DNA of 41,977 nt from a virus, in the IMG/VR virus record IMGVR_UViG_3300045988_017181, one strand, 5' to 3'. The position numbers were made by a program, and so were the translations under genes. Positions 1,453 through 35,121 of this stretch are shown piece after piece. The notes under the pieces were generated by a model. It did not search any database. It had not been told where the DNA came from and worked only from the letters and a program-made list of their open reading frames with translations. Position 1 is the stretch's first letter, and each line of letters begins with the position of its first letter.

Positions 1453-4400
1453 TCAGTTATCACCTCTTGCTAGCTTGAATGTATACCCTTTATCCTTATA
1501 TCTGTCTACACCCTTAGAGGTACCTTTAGGGCTGTGCCTATCTTCAGTTACCATCACACCTCCGATATTGGACGTATAGAATCCATACAGGGACTCCATA
1601 GACTCCTCTAGCCATTCTTCGGTTAGTTCATTAATACCTTCATCAGCATCTACGCCCATGAAGTCCACAAGGTATTTAACTCCGATTGCCAAAGCATCCA
1701 GACGGTCATCATGAATAAGGGCACCCCTATCAACAGTGATACGAGTGAGCTGATAGAAACAAGCATATTTGTAGTCAGATTCAGGTACGGTAGAGTAGTC
1801 ATTCCTGATACACTCAGGAGTGACACACATTTTATGGTTTGAGATTACAGGTTCAAGAGTATCAATGATACGCAGTTCTTTTTGTCCTGTGGATTTGACT
1901 TCAGTAACCCCGCAGTTACTATAGGTTTTCTTTAGTACAGGTTCAAATAGTTTGATGTACATCCCGTCACCAAAATTACCCTCAATGACTACTTCATTGA
2001 CTTTGTACTTCTTAGCTACCTTAGCGAGCTTATTGAGGACTACATCAGAATAACCTCCCAATAGACCGCCTACTTCCATGACGTAGATGTAGCCGTTAAG
2101 GTAATACAAGATTGCATAACCAGTTTCGTCTTTCGATTCTATGAAATTTCAACAGCTTTCCACCCCTTATGGTGCTTACGAGTTCCCTTAGCTACCTTAC
2201 GAAGGTTCTGAGGGGTAAGCTCATGTTCTCTACAGAACTCTACAAGAGATTCTGGGGTGTAGTTGTTACCATTGGGGTCTGTAATAAGATAACGCTTACC
2301 AGTACCGTAGTTATGAGGGGTATCCCCCTTCTTAAACCTAGTATCAAAGCAATCTCTACATACAGTACCCGTTCTACGTTTAGGCATATACTTGTTGCAA
2401 ACGGAGCATCTAACGGTAGCTACGTCACCTCCTGCCCTGCTGTTCCAACCCATGTTTAGCTCAGGTCTCAACACATATTCCATGTTAAGAGCTTCAGCTT
2501 TAGGGAGCATCTTAATTAGAGAGATCTCAACATTTTCTTTACCAAGGTTCCTAAGGATTTCTCCTACAGGACGCTTTGAGCAGAAGTGCTGTGAGAGTCT
2601 ATAATTCAAAGATCTTCTAGTAATGCCAACATATCCACTTGCTAGGTCATTATTACCTTTTTCGTGAATATGGTAAACTTTGTACAAACGGGTTTTAGCT
2701 CTAAAGTTGTTGATTTTCATATTTATGTTTAGTAGTTGTTAATTACTTTCTTATGGTCGCCCATAAGTCCAGACTATATCTTTTTCACCCCTGTTTCCCA
2801 CTAACACTCAGCGGTACATAATAGTCGTTACACCTTCCTAAATTAGGCTTGGCTCGGTATTATCTCTTAGAGACGTTCACCGAATTTAAGGGTTTTATTT
2901 AATGACGAGGCAAGACAGTTCACCACGTCCCGAAGGGTCAACACATAGAATTTTATGTGTATATGGCACAACCTCATTAGAGGCTGCATGATAGTAGAAG
3001 TAAGAATCTCCCTTAAGGCCCATCGTAGGACACTCATCAACTGGAACCCTCTTAGAAGGCTCAGGGAGCCACGTGAGCTTCATTGGAGCCTCGTCTAAGG
3101 GGAACATACCTACGATGAGGTCACGAAGCCGTAGAGGGTATTTATCGGCGTCTGAGAGGGTCGTGTCAAGCATGAACTGCAGAGCGAAGCCTGCCTTACG
3201 ATAAGATAGTTCACGCTTCTGTAGATCTTCTTCAGAGAACCTAAGGGGGTCTGTAGGCTTACCTGCCCAACGCTTAGGATCCTTGTCGTACTTGTCAGCA
3301 ATGATAGAGGCCAATCTATCGCCATAGGAGGCTCTATGAGAGTCATCATAGGGATACCTAGCGGGATAGATTACAGCCGTGTATCCGCGCTCCTGTAGCT
3401 CGTTATAGAGGCTCATTTCATTCTGGGGGGTGCCCAGATAGATGATCTTTTTACCTTCACCAGGCTTTAGGACAGCGTCGAACTCTTTGACGAGCTCGAA
3501 CAACTGGTCTCTAAGAACCTGAGTGAAGGAATTAGATGGAACTTCCACCTTTATGTTAAGGTAAGGTCGTTAGTCTTACCCCATCGTCTTTTATTTGAGT
3601 CTACTGCGTTTTCAGTAGCAGTAACAAACTTACAATGATCCCTAGAGTAGAGTCCACAGTTGCCCTTCTTGATGTCCTTATCAAGGTGCATGCTAGAGTC
3701 CTTTTCCCATTCTTCATAGCCTTCTACCTCGTGAATAGTATTCAAGAAGGTAGTAAAGTTATGCCACCTAGGATCTACCTTACAGCCTACATAGCTAGTT
3801 TTGTAGTTACCATAAGCTCTCTTAAGCATGTTAGCCCACAGGTCATAGATCTTGCGGATGATGCTATTAGAGCCTCTAGCAGGGATTCTAATAGGAGACC
3901 CAATGAACCCTACACCATAGGCCGTAGGTTCCATAAAGTCTTCAAACTTACCTGCCTTAATGTTGCAGGTCTGAACATCAATGACTGTACCTGTCTTGAC
4001 AAACTGAATGACAGCCCTAGGATGCTTAACTTTACCATTAGGAAGTTTCTGCTTCTTAGTTCTAGACAGGATCTTAATAAGACCCTTAGGAGTTTCGTAA
4101 GTTTTGTTAATTTCGTACATAGTTATGTTCCTTATAATTGACGATGCTTCATATCTCTATGAAGACCAGACTATATCTTATACCAAAAGGTATCCCCATT
4201 TTTCGAGTCACTTGACCCTACATAATAGTCGTTACACCTGCTAAATAGCTCGGCTCGGTATTGTCTTTCCTAGTTAGGACTGAGTTCCACCGAATTTAAG
4301 GGGTTTAAAGACGACATGGTTAAAGTTTATCGTCTGCGACAATGATGTCTGCACGGGAACCTGTTAGCTGGCCCTTAATACCCACAGACTTAACTGAAGG

Positions 4401-4805
4401 TGAGTGGTCTGGCAGGGCAGGGCCTACATCAAAAAGGTTCTGAGTATCTCTTTGACCTTCTCTAGCCTTTAGGTGGCTCAGAAAGGGCAATTCATTGATG
4501 ATCTTCTTAATAAACGTAGCATTAGCGTCTGCTCGTTCTTTGTTGGCAGACACTACCATGATCTTAGTCTGTGGATCCCTCCAGAGACTCCAGACAACGT
4601 ATGCACACGTAATAAAGGATTTAGCTACACCACGGAAACCCATTAGGATCATGCGGTCACTAGGGGGGTTCTGTAGTAGCTTAGCAATGTCTACCTGCAA
4701 CGTGGTAGGAGAAGGCAACCCGATAGATTTCCAAACCAAAGAGGTAAATAGTGGGAAGTTCTCATAGTAGGGGAGTAGAGCTTTAGCCTCTTTCTCAGTT
4801 AACAC
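1453..4805 (-). CDS. Terminase large subunit (T7 gp19-like), split: join(4329..4805, 2922..3548, 1453..2133), ~594 aa
   Basis: The three ORF fragments are colinear with T7 gp19: [23 protein letters not shown]; ADIIVADD|VEVPSNS; DPSGRG|[17 protein letters not shown]; HDDRLDAL. Each fragment ORF runs 2-8 codons past the homology break into a stop. Probable GTG start at 4805 after GGGGAG. Confidence 0.9.
2134..2921 (-). mobile_element. Group I intron 2 in the terminase gene (788 nt)
   Basis: The 5' exon ends in U (GGT, 2922). P1 pairs GACGTGGT with GCCTCGTC (2904..2911), with a U-G at the splice site and one U-U mismatch. P/Q-like AAATTCGGTGAAC / ATACCGAGCC; R-like GTAACGACTATTAT (2815..2833); S-like AAGATATAGTCTGG (2769..2782). 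The intron ends in G (2134). Confidence 0.8.
2139..2720 (-). CDS. Intron-encoded GIY-YIG homing endonuclease (I-TevI-like)
   Basis: N-terminal KVYHI...GYVGIT..R...R..QH GIY-YIG signature, Cys-rich linker (CSVCNKYMP...CRDC), basic C-terminal DNA-binding-like tail. The stop lies 5 nt before the 3' splice site. Confidence 0.8.
   Translation of the reverse strand: MKINNFRAKTRLYKVYHIHEKGNNDLASGYVGITRRSLNYRLSQHFCSKRPVGEILRNLGKENVEISLIKMLPKAEALNMEYVLRPELNMGWNSRAGGDVATVRCSVCNKYMPKRRTGTVCRDCFDTRFKKGDTPHNYGTGKRYLITDPNGNNYTPESLVEFCREHELTPQNLRKVAKGTRKHHKGWKAVEIS
3549..4328 (-). mobile_element. Group I intron 1 in the terminase gene (780 nt)
   Basis: The 5' exon ends GACGAT (4334..4329) and pairs with GTCGTC (4315..4310), with a U-G at the splice site. 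R (4219..4237) and S (4166..4179) blocks are near-identical to intron 2. The hairpin after S (4147..4164) covaries with the intron 2 hairpin (2750..2767). The last intron nucleotide is G (3549). Confidence 0.8.
3551..4120 (-). CDS. Intron-encoded homing endonuclease, probable HNH (His-Me finger) type
   Basis: C-terminal MHLDKD...N..LYS...C.FVT..EN resembles the HNH_3 pattern. Sits inside the intron and stops 2 nt before the 3' splice site. Confidence 0.55.
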   Translation of the reverse strand: MYEINKTYETPKGLIKILSRTKKQKLPNGKVKHPRAVIQFVKTGTVIDVQTCNIKAGKFEDFMEPTAYGVGFIGSPIRIPARGSNSIIRKIYDLWANMLKRAYGNYKTSYVGCKVDPRWHNFTTFLNTIHEVEGYEEWEKDSSMHLDKDIKKGNCGLYSRDHCKFVTATENAVDSNKRRWGKTNDLTLT

Positions 4806-27610: not shown

Positions 27611-27977
27611 AGAAATTCGGCGCGGAAACCTCTGTCTTCAGACAGGGGAGGAAGCGCCGTCCTCCTTTCTAAGTTCGGTTAAATAGGTGCTTCTCTTTTC
27701 GAGAAGCGTTTGGCGGATACCCGCAGGTTCCGCTTACACGGCCCGAAGGCCTGTTGACATCCTTCGCCAATGTTGGAAGGGGTTTGGTGCCTGCAACACC
27801 GCTCCTACCTCTCAGAGCTTTTAATCACAGGCCGCAGAGCGTGGAACTAGGATGTACATCCCACGGTGCCTATACATTCCCAACCAACGTAGCGCCTCTC
27901 GAAAGAGGGGCGCTGAGGCTAGTCAATAAAGGCTCTTTCAAGCCTCTGCCTTTAGGCAGGGGTTATTGACGTCTTCC
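27611..27977. ncRNA. Unclassified GC-rich, highly structured, ORF-free element (~370 nt); functional strand unresolved
   Basis: At least 10 local helices (plus coordinates): 27618-23/27654-59 enclosing 27629-36/27641-48; 27689-95/27701-07; 27713-16/27721-24; 27740-43/27748-51; 27761-65/27776-80; 27786-89/27797-800; 27891-900/27905-14; 27922-29/27963-70 enclosing 27943-50/27955-62. An 8-bp long-range pair joins 27647-54 and 27973-80. No ORF over 20 codons on the gene strand. Confidence 0.6.
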
Positions 27978-29332: not shown

Positions 29333-31870
29333 TTAGTGACAATCGAACCAGTTGGCACCAATCTTGCCTTCGGTGTCCAACTGACAATTAAACTTAAAGA
29401 ACTCCTGAGTCTGTCTCATGGATTCCTGTGCAATTCGCACACAGTCTTCTGCAATCTCTTTTGTTCTGCAGGCAACCTGTACCTCATCCTTACCGTTTCC
29501 CATATTGCTACGGGTGTCGGACTATCTCTTTACAGCCTATTGGTATTAGCTGTAGTAGGCATTTCGAGACTAGGGGGATCTCACCCCTAGCCCCTACGGT
29601 TTACACCTAGTCTCTACACTTCCATTCTCGAATCCATTTGCACGCAGATGAAAACGAGACACCAAAGACTTCACCTAGCTTAGTACCTGTACACTTATAA
29701 AGTTTCCAATACTCCTTAGCTTTAGCCTTTCTATCAGCATATCTAGTGGAGTTATGCTCGACTTTATGATCGACGATCTTAACTAGCTCAAGGTGGCTAA
29801 GGTTACAACAGGCACGATTATGACACTCGTGATGAATCTCATAGCCTTCAGGGACTTCGCCATTAGCTTCTTCCCATACAAGTCTGTGAGCCATAATCAA
29901 GGGCTTTCTACCTTTACCCTTATACCTGTGATCTCTAATCCTTAGATAACCATCGTGATTCAGTCTATGTGATGTGGAGACTATGCAACCGTTTTGATCC
30001 TTAGTCAAGACCATAGGTTTACCACGCATAGTTCCTCCAATGTTTAGCTCGGGATTGCCCCAGAGGGGTTTCCCCGAATTAACCTACTTTAACGTGCACA
30101 ATGAAGTTTATGCACCCACGCCATCATGGCAAAGTCTCCGTCCCAACCATGCTTGTAGCCTGCTTTACGCATATTCTCCTCAACAAGACACACCCACTTC
30201 TTACAAATAAGGGCGCCTGCAGACTGCAGGATAGTGTTCAGAGCCGAGTGAGGGCTTCGCACATAAACAAGGCGGCGATCAAGCCCAAGAATATGGTGAG
30301 AAATATTAAGAGTAGGGCAATCAGGGTGGACACGTTTCTTCCATTTTACTTTTTGAGTGTTCCCAATCCATTCAGAGGACTCAACAAGAGCCTTATCAAT
30401 GGAACTACAGAGCTTCTTGTATGCAGGGACAGCCTTAAAGAATCTTTCCTTAAGAGCTTTGCCATCCTTAGCAGTGCCATTAATGACAGCTCCAAGTTTA
30501 CCGTCACCACCACCATAGAGCATGCAGTAGATCATGGTCTTCGCTTGGTCTCTCGTGGGAAGCCCTGCCATCTTCTGATTATGGGTGTGAATGTCACCCT
30601 CAAGGATTTCCTTTATATAAGCACCGTTGTCAAAAGGAAACAGGAAAGACCCAAAGCACCGAAGTTCCAAACCAGAAGCGTCGATACCTGCCTCAAACCA
30701 GCCTTTAGGAACTGTGAACAGAGACCTGCACTCCTTACCGTATGGAGACCTTCCTGCAGGAACTTGTGCAACATTAGGATATGAATGTGTTGCACGACCA
30801 GTAACAGCACCGTTAGGATTAACAGAACCGTGAATACGGTAGTATCCATCTTCATCTTCCTTCATAAGCTTAAGCCAAGCGTTGTCACCCTCAGCAAGCT
30901 GTGCGATACGCTTGTTAATCAGCAGGTACTCAAGGATCTTAGGTGTCAGAGGGATACCCATAGCAGACTGAAGGGTGTCTTCATCAACCTTAGGGGCACC
31001 AGTAGGTGTAACCTCAGTAGGCTCCCAACCTCTTTCCATAAGCACCTTAGCAATGTGACTACGGGAATTAGGATTGAATGTAACCTCCTCATACTGAGGA
31101 TAAGGAACGCCTGCTTTAATTCCTTTCTTAGCGTTATCTCGCTTGTAGATCTTGTCTCCCTTGTAGACAGTCCAAGAGCCTACCTCAGAGACAAGGCTTT
31201 CATAGATCTCCTGTCTCTTTGCAGAGAGTTCAGCATAGAGCTTTACTGCCGCATCTTTATCAAAGACAAACCCATTACGTTCCTGCTTAGCCATGACCCA
31301 AGCAATGTCATGCTCAAGCTGAATGGCCTTCAAAGGGTAACCCTTAGCCATCAGCTTATGGAACAACTTAAGGGTAACCACAACGTCCTGTTTGTTGTAC
31401 TCATACATTTCAGGAGTAAACTTGTCCCAAGCACCCTCATGTTCGCCATAGGTGCCCTTCAGTTCACCCATACGGTAACCATAAGCCTTCAGGCTGTGGG
31501 AACCATAGAGAGCCTTAGGGAGCCTACCAGAACGCATAAGACCAACGTCAGTGTCCTTGATATTCGAGTAGATCAAACGAGCAAGTACAAGAGTGTCAAT
31601 ACAGACATCTCGAACATCAAATGCAAACCTCTCCCCCTTGAGCTTCTTAAGAGCAGGGATGTCAAATTTGCAGATATTGTGACCAACGATGCTGTACCCA
31701 CTAGTACCATACTTATTCAAGGCATCGAAGAACTCATCAAGATCAGTGTAACCAGTGTACAAATCCGTATAAGAATCGTACAACCAACCACACCAAAACC
31801 TCTTGGTCGTATCAAGCAACCCATCAGTTTCAATATCGAACACAATAAATTTGTCTTTAATTGTCAGCAT
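29333..31870 (-). CDS. DNA polymerase (T7 gp5-like, family A), split: join(30110..31870, 29333..29488), ~638 aa
   Basis: Motif A GIDASGLELRC; motif B RDQAKTMIYCMLYGGG. The ORF breaks inside motif C (...MAWVH|KLHCAR*). The rest, DEVQVACRTKE...QLDTEGKIGANWFDCH*, matches the T7 C-terminus (HDEIQVGCRTEE...LLDTEGKMGPNWAICH) and lies 621 nt downstream. Confidence 0.9.
29489..30109 (-). mobile_element. Group I intron in the DNA polymerase gene (621 nt)
   Basis: P1: exon GTGCAT (30115..30110) pairs with GTGCAC (30099..30094), with a U-G at the splice site. P/Q-like TTAATTCGGGGAAAC / CAATCCCGAGC before the ORF; S-like AAAGAGATAGTCCG after it. The last nucleotide is G (29489). Confidence 0.8.
29607..30029 (-). 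CDS. Intron-encoded HNH homing endonuclease
   Basis: GYEIHHECHNRACCNLSHLELV...DH..H HNH motif. 140 aa, inside the intron. Confidence 0.85.
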   Translation of the reverse strand: MRGKPMVLTKDQNGCIVSTSHRLNHDGYLRIRDHRYKGKGRKPLIMAHRLVWEEANGEVPEGYEIHHECHNRACCNLSHLELVKIVDHKVEHNSTRYADRKAKAKEYWKLYKCTGTKLGEVFGVSFSSACKWIREWKCRD

Positions 31871-34823: not shown

Positions 34824-34911
34824 TGGTGCCCTAGGAGGGAATCGAACCCTCACGAGCCTTGCTTCTCCACTGATTCTAATTCAGTTGTGTATACCATTTC
34901 ACCACTAGGGC
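34824..34911 (-). tRNA. tRNA-Leu (anticodon UAG), type II with a long variable arm; CCA encoded
   Basis: Manual cloverleaf: acceptor GCCCTAG/CTAGGGC; anticodon stem ACTGA/TCAGT with loop ATTAGAA; T arm GAGGG-TTCGATT-CCCTC; 17-nt variable region. Confidence 0.85.
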
Positions 34912-35044: not shown

Positions 35045-35121
35045 TGGTCTCTCCTACAGGATTCGAACCTGTGACCGTATGCTTAGAAGGCATATGCTCT
35101 ATCCAACTGAGCTAAGGAGAG
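35045..35121 (-). tRNA. tRNA-Arg (anticodon UCU); CCA encoded
   Basis: Manual cloverleaf: acceptor CTCTCCT/AGGAGAG; D arm GCTC-AGTTGGATA-GAGC; anticodon stem TATGC/GCATA with loop CTTCTAA; T arm ACAGG-TTCGAAT-CCTGT. Confidence 0.9.

Follow-up and report, generated by a model that had tools for sequence, protein, structure and literature searches.

The 41,977-nt virus sequence analysed here over its whole length (IMG/VR record IMGVR_UViG_3300045988_017181, called the window) is a T7-like podovirus genome of ~42 kb with every gene on the minus strand; it codes for a T7-type primase-helicase, a family A DNA polymerase, a portal protein and a T7-type terminase nuclease domain. Comparative analysis of its large terminase subunit gene (TerL) indicates that two mobile group I introns of the phage IA type, independent of each other, interrupt this gene and are transcribed together with its exons in a single precursor, a reading to which we assign a probability of about 0.9. 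The TerL reading frame consists of three exons, split by intervening segments of 780 nt and 788 nt. The features of this region, given in the order in which the gene is read, are the following:

4329-4805, minus strand: TerL exon 1, from the GTG start at 4805 in the open reading frame (ORF) list to ...ADIIVADD, with U at 4329 as last base
3549-4328, minus strand: predicted group I intron 1 (site 1), 780 nt, ending in G at 3549; absent from MT835695.1
4309-4319, minus strand: predicted internal guide of intron 1; GUCGUCU (4315-4309) pairs with exon AGACGAU as P1 and CCAU (4319-4316) with exon-2 GUGG as P10
4147-4303, minus strand: predicted catalytic core of intron 1, with P3, P4, P5, P6, P7, P7.2, P3', P8, J8/7-P7' and P9
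3551-4120, minus strand: intron 1 ORF, 189 aa, a putative divergent HNH-like homing endonuclease of the phrog_2081 family
3560-3588, minus strand: 3' elements of intron 1, namely the P9.1 3' strand and the P9.2 hairpin, over the C-terminal codons of the ORF
2922-3548, minus strand: TerL exon 2, 627 nt or 209 codons, VEVPSNS...DPSGRG, with U at 2922 as last base
2134-2921, minus strand: predicted group I intron 2 (site 2), 788 nt, ending in G at 2134; absent from MT835695.1, L007 and L108
2904-2916, minus strand: predicted internal guide of intron 2; GCCUCGUC (2911-2904) pairs with exon GACGUGGU as P1 and GUCUU (2916-2912) with exon-3 AAGAC as P10
2750-2893, minus strand: predicted catalytic core of intron 2, with P3, P4, P5, P6, P7, P7.2, P3', J8/7-P7' and P9, and no P8
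2139-2720, minus strand: intron 2 ORF, 193 aa, a putative GIY-YIG homing endonuclease with an I-HmuI-type NUMOD-like DNA-binding domain
1453-2133, minus strand: TerL exon 3, from KDETGYA to the stop codon, with the RNase H-like nuclease domain

Exon 1 ends with ...GCAGACGAU at 4329 and exon 2 begins with GUGGAAGUU at 3548, while exon 2 ends with ...GGACGUGGU at 2922 and exon 3 begins with AAAGACGAA at 2133. The last bases of the two upstream exons are GACGAU and CGUGGU, respectively, and the terminal base of both introns is G. When joined, the exons encode a TerL protein of 594 aa that aligns in one piece, with 87.8% amino acid identity, to the uninterrupted 598-aa TerL of the intron-less human-gut phage contig MT835695.1. 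Residues 1-159, encoded by exon 1, are covered by tblastn and give a weak match to the Pfam model GpA_ATPase; exon 3 matches PF22530 (Terminase-T7_RNaseH-like) with 123.5 bits, the match starting directly with the opening residue of this exon. The blastn alignment of the DNA with the uninterrupted TerL gene of MT835695.1 breaks at 4330, 3548 and 2133; for exon 2 it reaches 2929 and leaves the last 7 nt up to the junction at 2922 unaligned. The junction positions are nevertheless exact because the MT835695.1 protein reads through both of them (...ADIIVADD/VEVPSNS... and ...DPSGRG/KDETGYA..., the latter in the stretch DPSGRGKDETGYA). Precise excision would restore the TerL frame and give a spliced ORF colinear with that of MT835695.1. 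By motif pattern, the insertion sites appear to lie within the most conserved catalytic motifs of TerL, the first in the Walker B region (...IIVADD/VE...) and the second at the start of the nuclease domain (...VDPSGRG/KDE...).

A different explanation would be that the terminase is truly fragmented, i.e. produced as three separate polypeptides with free-standing endonuclease genes between them and no RNA splicing. GenBank records of cultured relatives are annotated in this manner (TerL, then HNH or GIY-YIG, then TerL), and the ORF list of the window contains every fragment, each with a potential start codon. However, the fragment starts are artefacts of ORF calling, an example being a GTG exactly at a junction, and the breaks would, by the same motif pattern, fall inside Walker B and the first nuclease motif. 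Complete ribozyme cores are found precisely between the fragments, their covarying P1 and P10 helices follow the exon sequence, and ORF-less insertions of ~255 nt exist at the same site. We consider a fragmented terminase extremely improbable. An intein or split-intein arrangement was also rejected, as such features are missing and in-frame stops occur 2 to 8 codons after both junctions.

The assignment of both intervening segments to group I introns is based on family models and on structure. Both give a full-length match to the Rfam group I family RF00028, with 53.5 bits for intron 2 (E 5e-12, above the gathering score of 50) and 44.7 bits for intron 1 (E 2e-9). A covariance model constructed in this work (R1) scores intron 1 at 157.5 bits and intron 2 at 109.9 bits. 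The elements occur in the order guide sequence, P3, P4, P5, P4', P6, P7, P7.2, P3', P8, J8/7-P7' and P9 with a GNRA loop. Four blocks, CCCUUAAAUUCGGUG, AAUACCGAGCC, GUGUAACGACUAUUAUGUA and AAGAUAUAGUCUGG, are identical between introns 1 and 2 and represent P3/P4, P4', P7 and J8/7-P7'. P9 is a 7-bp stem in both introns, CUUCAUA-GAGA-UAUGAAG in intron 1 and CUUAUGG-GCGA-CCAUAAG in intron 2. The pattern GTAACGACTA-N30-60-AAGATATAGTC occurs twice in the window as compared to 0.00 expected occurrences (100 shuffles). P7 is invariant (GACUA/UAGUC), and its support comes from the sequence only. P7.2 is kept in both window introns and UUAU stands where P7.1 would be; most relatives have both P7.1 and P7.2. 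With respect to subgroup IA2 traits, intron 1 has a covarying P9.1 and P9.2, and in intron 2 neither is recognisable.

For covariation analysis, relatives were gathered in two steps, by a P7-to-P7' pattern that retrieved >120 viral contigs and subsequently by our own covariance model, which gave 180 matches within 0.89 Mb of fetched DNA. RNAalifold analysis of 12 cores showed compensatory changes on both sides in 20 of 29 pairs, located in P4, P5, P6, P7.2 and P9. In a model alignment of 150 sequences, 93.4% of the cells were paired versus 37-42% when the partners were slid, both-side changes were present in 38 of 38 pairs and the covariation score was 0.661 versus at most 0.093, with the caveat that an alignment fitted to a covariance model leans towards the structure of that model. 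Covariation among relatives supports P1, P10, P3, P9.1 and P9.2. In intron 1, the U at the end of the 5' exon pairs with the G at intron nucleotide 14 (in GUCGUCU), and P10 shows a compensatory change between the window (GUGG/CCAU) and the Klebsiella phage vB_Kp_Z1 (L125, AUUG/CAAU). The P1 of intron 2 holds one U-U mismatch and its exon-end U pairs with the G at intron nucleotide 11. This helix covaries at site 2 as well, with exon/guide sequences GACGUGGU/GCCUCGUC in the window, GGCUGUGGU/GCCUCAGCC in L036 and GUAGGGGU/GCUCCUAC in L075, and the site-2 P10 carries a compensatory change in L030 (AAGGAC/GUCCUU, compared with AAGAC/GUCUU in the window).

A sequence-only reading of the window had proposed a three-exon TerL with two introns at the same coordinates, introns ending in G, 5' exons ending in a U that pairs with a guide G, shared blocks corresponding to the P, Q, R and S elements, and a hairpin after S (here P9) that differs in sequence between the introns with its pairing kept. 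Every one of these elements is present, and the four shared blocks were correctly assigned and are identical in both introns. Two of the checks it suggested, alignment to an intron-less relative and a search with Rfam group I models, confirm the two insertion sites in the MT835695.1 TerL and return the RF00028 matches given above.

In the mechanism that we propose, the guide sequence of each intron would pair with the end of the upstream exon (P1, with the U.G pair at the cut) and with the start of the downstream exon (P10). Free guanosine would attack the 5' splice site, after which the terminal G of the intron would occupy the guanosine site and the exons would be ligated to give the continuous 594-aa TerL. 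Each intron would also code for a site-specific DNase, HNH-like and located in the P9.1 loop in intron 1, and of the GIY-YIG type and located between P9 and the 3' splice site in intron 2. During mixed infection, a terminase allele without the intron would be expected to be cleaved by the enzyme close to the point of insertion, and the intron would be copied in during repair (homing); the cleavage specificity of both endonucleases is presumed.

The set of conserved core helices is complete in intron 1. Its core includes a P8 of sequence AUACC-UUUU-GGUAU (4193-4180), and at the 3' end P9.1 is formed by GACGAUG (3588-3582) and CAUCGUC (4146-4140), followed by the P9.2 hairpin GGUAAG-ACUAACGAC-CUUACC (3580-3560) and by UUAACAUAAAG directly at the 3' splice site. 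P9.1 and P9.2 covary throughout the site-1 introns, and both are also found in L083, of which the site-1 intron of 254 nt has no ORF and equals nucleotides 1-194 plus 724-780 of the window intron 1. Therefore, the HNH-like cassette sits in the P9.1 loop. The final 19 codons of the intron 1 ORF overlie the P9.1 and P9.2 structural elements.

The two introns carry different endonucleases 3' of the core, as the sequence-only reading had recognised from the ORFs. The intron 1 ORF is preceded by a Shine-Dalgarno sequence AAGGA at 4133-4129 and its stop codon lies 2 nt before the 3' splice site. It matches PHROGs 2081, 953 and 374, all labelled 'HNH endonuclease', with E-values of 1e-38 to 2e-15, 2081 being the best. 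The AlphaFold2 model (predicted local distance difference test score, pLDDT, of 90.7) has a C-terminal beta-beta-alpha element in which the residues HLDKD...YS...CxF...EN follow the spacing of the HNH_3-type motif; the His of HLDKD is not invariant in the family. Its 78 database homologues are nearly all without names. Foldseek comparison with the BFVD predicted viral proteins gave strong matches, weaker ones being named HNH or homing endonuclease, and the best match is the ORF from Pseudomonas phage KIL3b, which has a related intron in its TerL gene. The stop codon of the intron 2 ORF lies 5 nt before the 3' splice site. This protein matches the Pfam models PF01541 (25.9 bits, cut-off 22.6) and PF22083 (28.5 bits, cut-off 27), and the signature residues VY-H, GY-G, R41, E81 and N93 are invariant among 5 orthologues that are 57-90% identical. 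A profile made of orthologues matches the C-terminal DNA-binding domain of I-HmuI (1u3e, E 0.005). The predicted combination of a catalytic domain with a separate DNA-binding domain is that of a GIY-YIG homing endonuclease. NCBIfam gave no match for either endonuclease. Both proteins match adjoining, non-overlapping parts of phrog_2081, the intron 1 ORF positions 41-201 (nuclease) and the C-terminus of the intron 2 ORF positions 201-248 (NUMOD-like DNA-binding); this split match suggests domain shuffling between endonuclease families.

Occupancy of the insertion sites differs between related genomes. Among relatives with a TerL that is 75-99% identical, the following distribution was found:

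no TerL intron: MT835695.1
site 1 only: L007 and L108 (TerL 98% identical to that of the window)
site 2 only: L102, L131-L133, L135 and L139
sites 1 and 2: L011 and L136-L138
three TerL introns: L128, L129, L134 and L140

Further TerL intron sites occur after residues 179, ~423 and ~512, which gives a total of at least 5 sites in the clade:

site ~423: introns in L018, L053, L097, L100, L128, L129 and L140
site ~512: introns in L051 and L134

The site-423 intron is found at lengths of 313, 429, 482 and 716 nt, a series that looks like ORF decay. At residue 179, the close relative L002 (MT835557.1) has a 749-nt insertion (2017-2765) after ...LRDQLFELV with an EndoVII/HNH-type ORF. Rfam misses this insertion, in which our own model recognises a group I core (72 bits) located 3' of the ORF; it is evidently one more intron site, and its endonuclease is of a third type. 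High densities of model matches occur in L068 (a 143-kb contig with ~14 matches in 13 kb), L063 (~9) and L013 (~6).

Each of the site-1 introns of relatives has an orthologue of the intron 1 ORF (43-98% identical) and each of the site-2 introns an orthologue of the intron 2 ORF (52-97% identical); ORF-less site-1 introns of 254-257 nt also exist. Homologous introns at the same sites are evidently compatible with viability, being present in the cultured phages Henu2_3 and vB_Kp_Z1 of Klebsiella and DT115P1 of Edwardsiella. vB_Kp_Z1 and DT115P1 have a site-1 intron with ORF, and in Henu2_3 both sites are occupied. Presence/absence polymorphism at identical sites, together with an intron-encoded endonuclease, identifies these elements as mobile (homing) introns.

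The similarity of the two cores could also have arisen by a recent intragenic duplication, in which one intron was copied to a second TerL site and the copies then took up different endonuclease cassettes. This is close to what the sequence-only reading had suggested, namely that the introns are paralogous and that one ribozyme chassis took up two cassettes within TerL. The long identical blocks are common to both cores, P7.1 is missing in both (UUAU), and the pairwise core identity of 70% between introns 1 and 2 is slightly over the 56-65% that is typical of cross-site comparisons in other phages. A value of 59% obtained from a MAFFT multiple alignment was set aside, as MAFFT misaligns the variable hairpins and the P8-less members; consistent pairwise alignment gives the 70%. 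However, each intron is at least as close to same-site introns elsewhere (intron 1 is 74% identical to L125 and intron 2 73% to L036), and the core identities to same-site introns in distant phages are about the same as that between the two, at 66-74% for intron 1 and 64-73% for intron 2. The pairing of endonuclease and site persists in terminases that are only ~30-35% identical to that of the window, including that of Henu2_3 with both sites filled. The introns also assort independently among near-identical genomes, and the ORFs occupy different positions in the ribozyme (the P9.1 loop versus after the last recognisable helix). The shared blocks are evidently family-wide consensus, present in >120 contigs. 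Accordingly, the term paralogous holds only in the sense that both introns are members of one large phage IA-type family. The idea of one chassis with two cassettes is not supported because each site keeps its own endonuclease in distant terminases, and a recent duplication is quite unlikely. The best reading of these sequences is that two pre-assembled intron-endonuclease units entered TerL separately.

Some observations weigh against two functional mobile introns. We infer the splicing of both TerL introns from sequence, and the RF00028 score of intron 1 falls under the gathering score. Pfam models, those for HNH included, match neither the intron 1 ORF nor its 6 orthologues or 78 database homologues, and Foldseek comparison with the PDB gave nothing significant, only weak Tudor/SH3-like matches to the N-terminal beta domain. 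Single-sequence and profile searches against PDB sequences likewise returned nothing relevant. The intron 1 ORF is best called HNH-like, on motif and model, its HNH catalytic class not being confirmed by a solved structure; this was the label chosen by the sequence-only reading, which had the level of caution right. In intron 2, P8 is not present, with GAAA alone separating P3' (AGGGGU) from J8/7 (AAGAUAUAGUC). Finally, duplex folding and a longest-helix search revealed no covariation-supported helix that could return the remote 3' splice site of intron 2 to the core, P9 lying ~610 nt upstream of it. The sole long-range candidate helix, UUAACAACU/AGCUGUUGA, shows no variation among any of the close relatives and does not occur in the distant ones, which puts it beyond covariation testing.

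P8 is normally counted among the conserved helices of the group I core. In intron 2, P3' (2792-2787), J8/7-P7' (2782-2772) and P9 (2767-2750) can all be located, and the strong covariation of P3 allows P3' to be placed with confidence. The ORF lies between the last recognisable helix and the 3' splice site. Distant site-2 relatives have a P9.2-type hairpin before the ORF, which the window intron 2 does not have. Intron 2 might thus be a decayed ribozyme that no longer splices after loss of P8, in which case the genome would be defective or a protein or RNA helper would act in trans. The GAAA remnant and the missing P9.2-type hairpin would fit such decay, and full-text literature searches for group I introns without P8, or with a dispensable P8, found no paper describing such cores and nothing usable; we claim no priority. 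On the other hand, the P8-less core occurs at site 2 in 16 contigs with 0-3 nt differences among them; divergence between the TerL proteins of these contigs reaches 25%, and several of the contigs have the full genome length (42-45 kb). The TerL exons in these contigs are mostly intact (alleles 75-99% identical). A P8-less gap recurs in 10 of 138 distinct related cores, from at least 7 lineages, and the GIY-YIG ORF is still intact, its signature residues being invariant. Decay is therefore unlikely, and splicing of the P8-less intron can be expected because no such spread would have been possible for an intron that cannot be excised from the transcript of an essential gene. That intron 2 is a natural splicing-competent group I ribozyme which has lost P8 entirely, with 4 nt left, and that this loss was repeated in phage IA-type introns, we would put at even odds.

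The layout of intron 2 is similar to that of the T4 sunY intron, in which the core is wholly in the 5' part, with a GIY-YIG ORF downstream and a remote 3' splice site. This T4 nrdD (sunY) intron with I-TevII resembles intron 2 in being of phage IA type with a GIY-YIG ORF, whereas its host gene encodes the anaerobic ribonucleotide reductase instead of a terminase. Unlike the T4 intron, the window intron 2 lacks P8 and P7.1, and its endonuclease has an I-HmuI-type NUMOD-like domain. Phage LL-H, a siphovirus with a single terminase intron, shares with the window a group I intron inside the large terminase gene. That intron has been known since 1995, according to a citation in PMC9610469. The sunY intron carries the I-TevII ORF, and terminases are among the typical targets of phage group I introns (reviewed in PMC3984707). 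In the Bastillevirinae, phages of Bacillus, TerL contains two or three IA-type group I introns of which splicing was verified experimentally, and the loop-encoded endonucleases include PHROG 2081 'HNH endonuclease' and GIY-YIG enzymes (PMC11878797, NAR 2025). These are large Bacillus myoviruses with another TerL family, and their phrog_2081 ORFs are in DNA polymerase introns (PMC11878797). Exon skipping has been described for TerL of Bacillus phage SIOphi (PMC11878797). Exon 2 of the window is exactly 627 nt (209 codons), and a splice running from the intron 1 5' site directly to the intron 2 3' site would yield an in-frame TerL without residues 160-368.

The known polymerase introns of T7-like phages are of IA2 type with HNH endonucleases and reside in gene 5, whereas the terminase introns of the window are in gene 19. 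T7-like phages phiI and W31 carry such DNA polymerase group I introns. Another is found in the T7-like phage Pf-WMP3, with endonuclease I-PfoP3I (PMC3428280). Our literature searches returned no description of terminase introns from T7-like phages; a paper on BUCT541 was irrelevant in this respect, as it deals with a free-standing endonuclease in a siphovirus. The nearest cultured examples are the Autographiviridae Henu2_3 (PQ394119), vB_Kp_Z1 (PQ308734) and vB_EtA_DT115P1 (PV165918), which have homologous introns at exactly the same TerL sites and orthologous endonucleases in terminases that are ~28-38% identical to that of the window. In Henu2_3, the site-2 intron keeps P8 and the hairpin before the ORF, and the site-1 intron is short (~295 nt). 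For Henu2_3, the annotation shows three terminase fragments and a GIY-YIG gene, without introns. In the same way, PQ394119, PQ308734, PV165918 and related records (L125-L127) list split terminases as two or three 'terminase large subunit' coding sequences plus an 'HNH', 'GIY-YIG' or 'hypothetical' gene. These fragment annotations are errors and will propagate.

Elsewhere in the window, further elements were detected:

29489-30109, minus strand: third predicted group I intron, 621 nt, splitting the family A DNA polymerase gene; Rfam 37.5 bits, E 3e-6
29607-30029, minus strand: ORF of the polymerase intron, a canonical HNH_3 endonuclease (PF13392, 58 bits), within the P6 region
27753-27970, minus strand: HEARO RNA RF02033 (IscB/HNH-associated omega-RNA family), full length, 139 bits versus a gathering score of 83
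34824-34911 and 35045-35121, minus strand: phage-encoded tRNA-Leu(UAG) and tRNA-Arg(UCU), respectively

The polymerase intron interrupts motif C (...AWVH/DEVQVAC...), and the spliced polymerase would end in ...NWFDCH and a stop codon. The HEARO RNA sits just downstream of the 5'-3' exonuclease gene. An IscB- or HNH-like ORF was not recognised beside it; among its small neighbours only a 174-aa ORF was scanned, which had no Pfam match. An orphan HEARO RNA is unexpected in a T7-like phage.

A TerL gene split by group I introns that carry endonucleases is a well-known type of selfish element, and the missing P8 is the only unusual detail. For specialists, the interest lies in this recurrent P8-less core, which has evidently spread between genomes, and in the widespread intron-encoded endonuclease family of the phrog_2081 type, for which there is no Pfam model and no match to a solved structure. 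If intron 2 indeed splices without P8, the catalytic core of group I introns would not strictly require this helix in vivo, and docking of the substrate helix would have to be achieved by another element, possibly the enlarged P7.2. The practical value is in annotation, since T7-like terminases, both from gut viromes and from cultured phages of Klebsiella and Edwardsiella, enter the databases as two or three fragments with a 'hypothetical' or 'HNH' gene. TerL is a standard marker for phage phylogeny and for checks of genome completeness, and recognition of the introns restores one protein of 594 aa. In this clade of gut phages, TerL is an intron hotspot with at least 5 insertion sites and up to three of them filled per gene, which makes it a natural system for the study of assortment and competition of homing elements.

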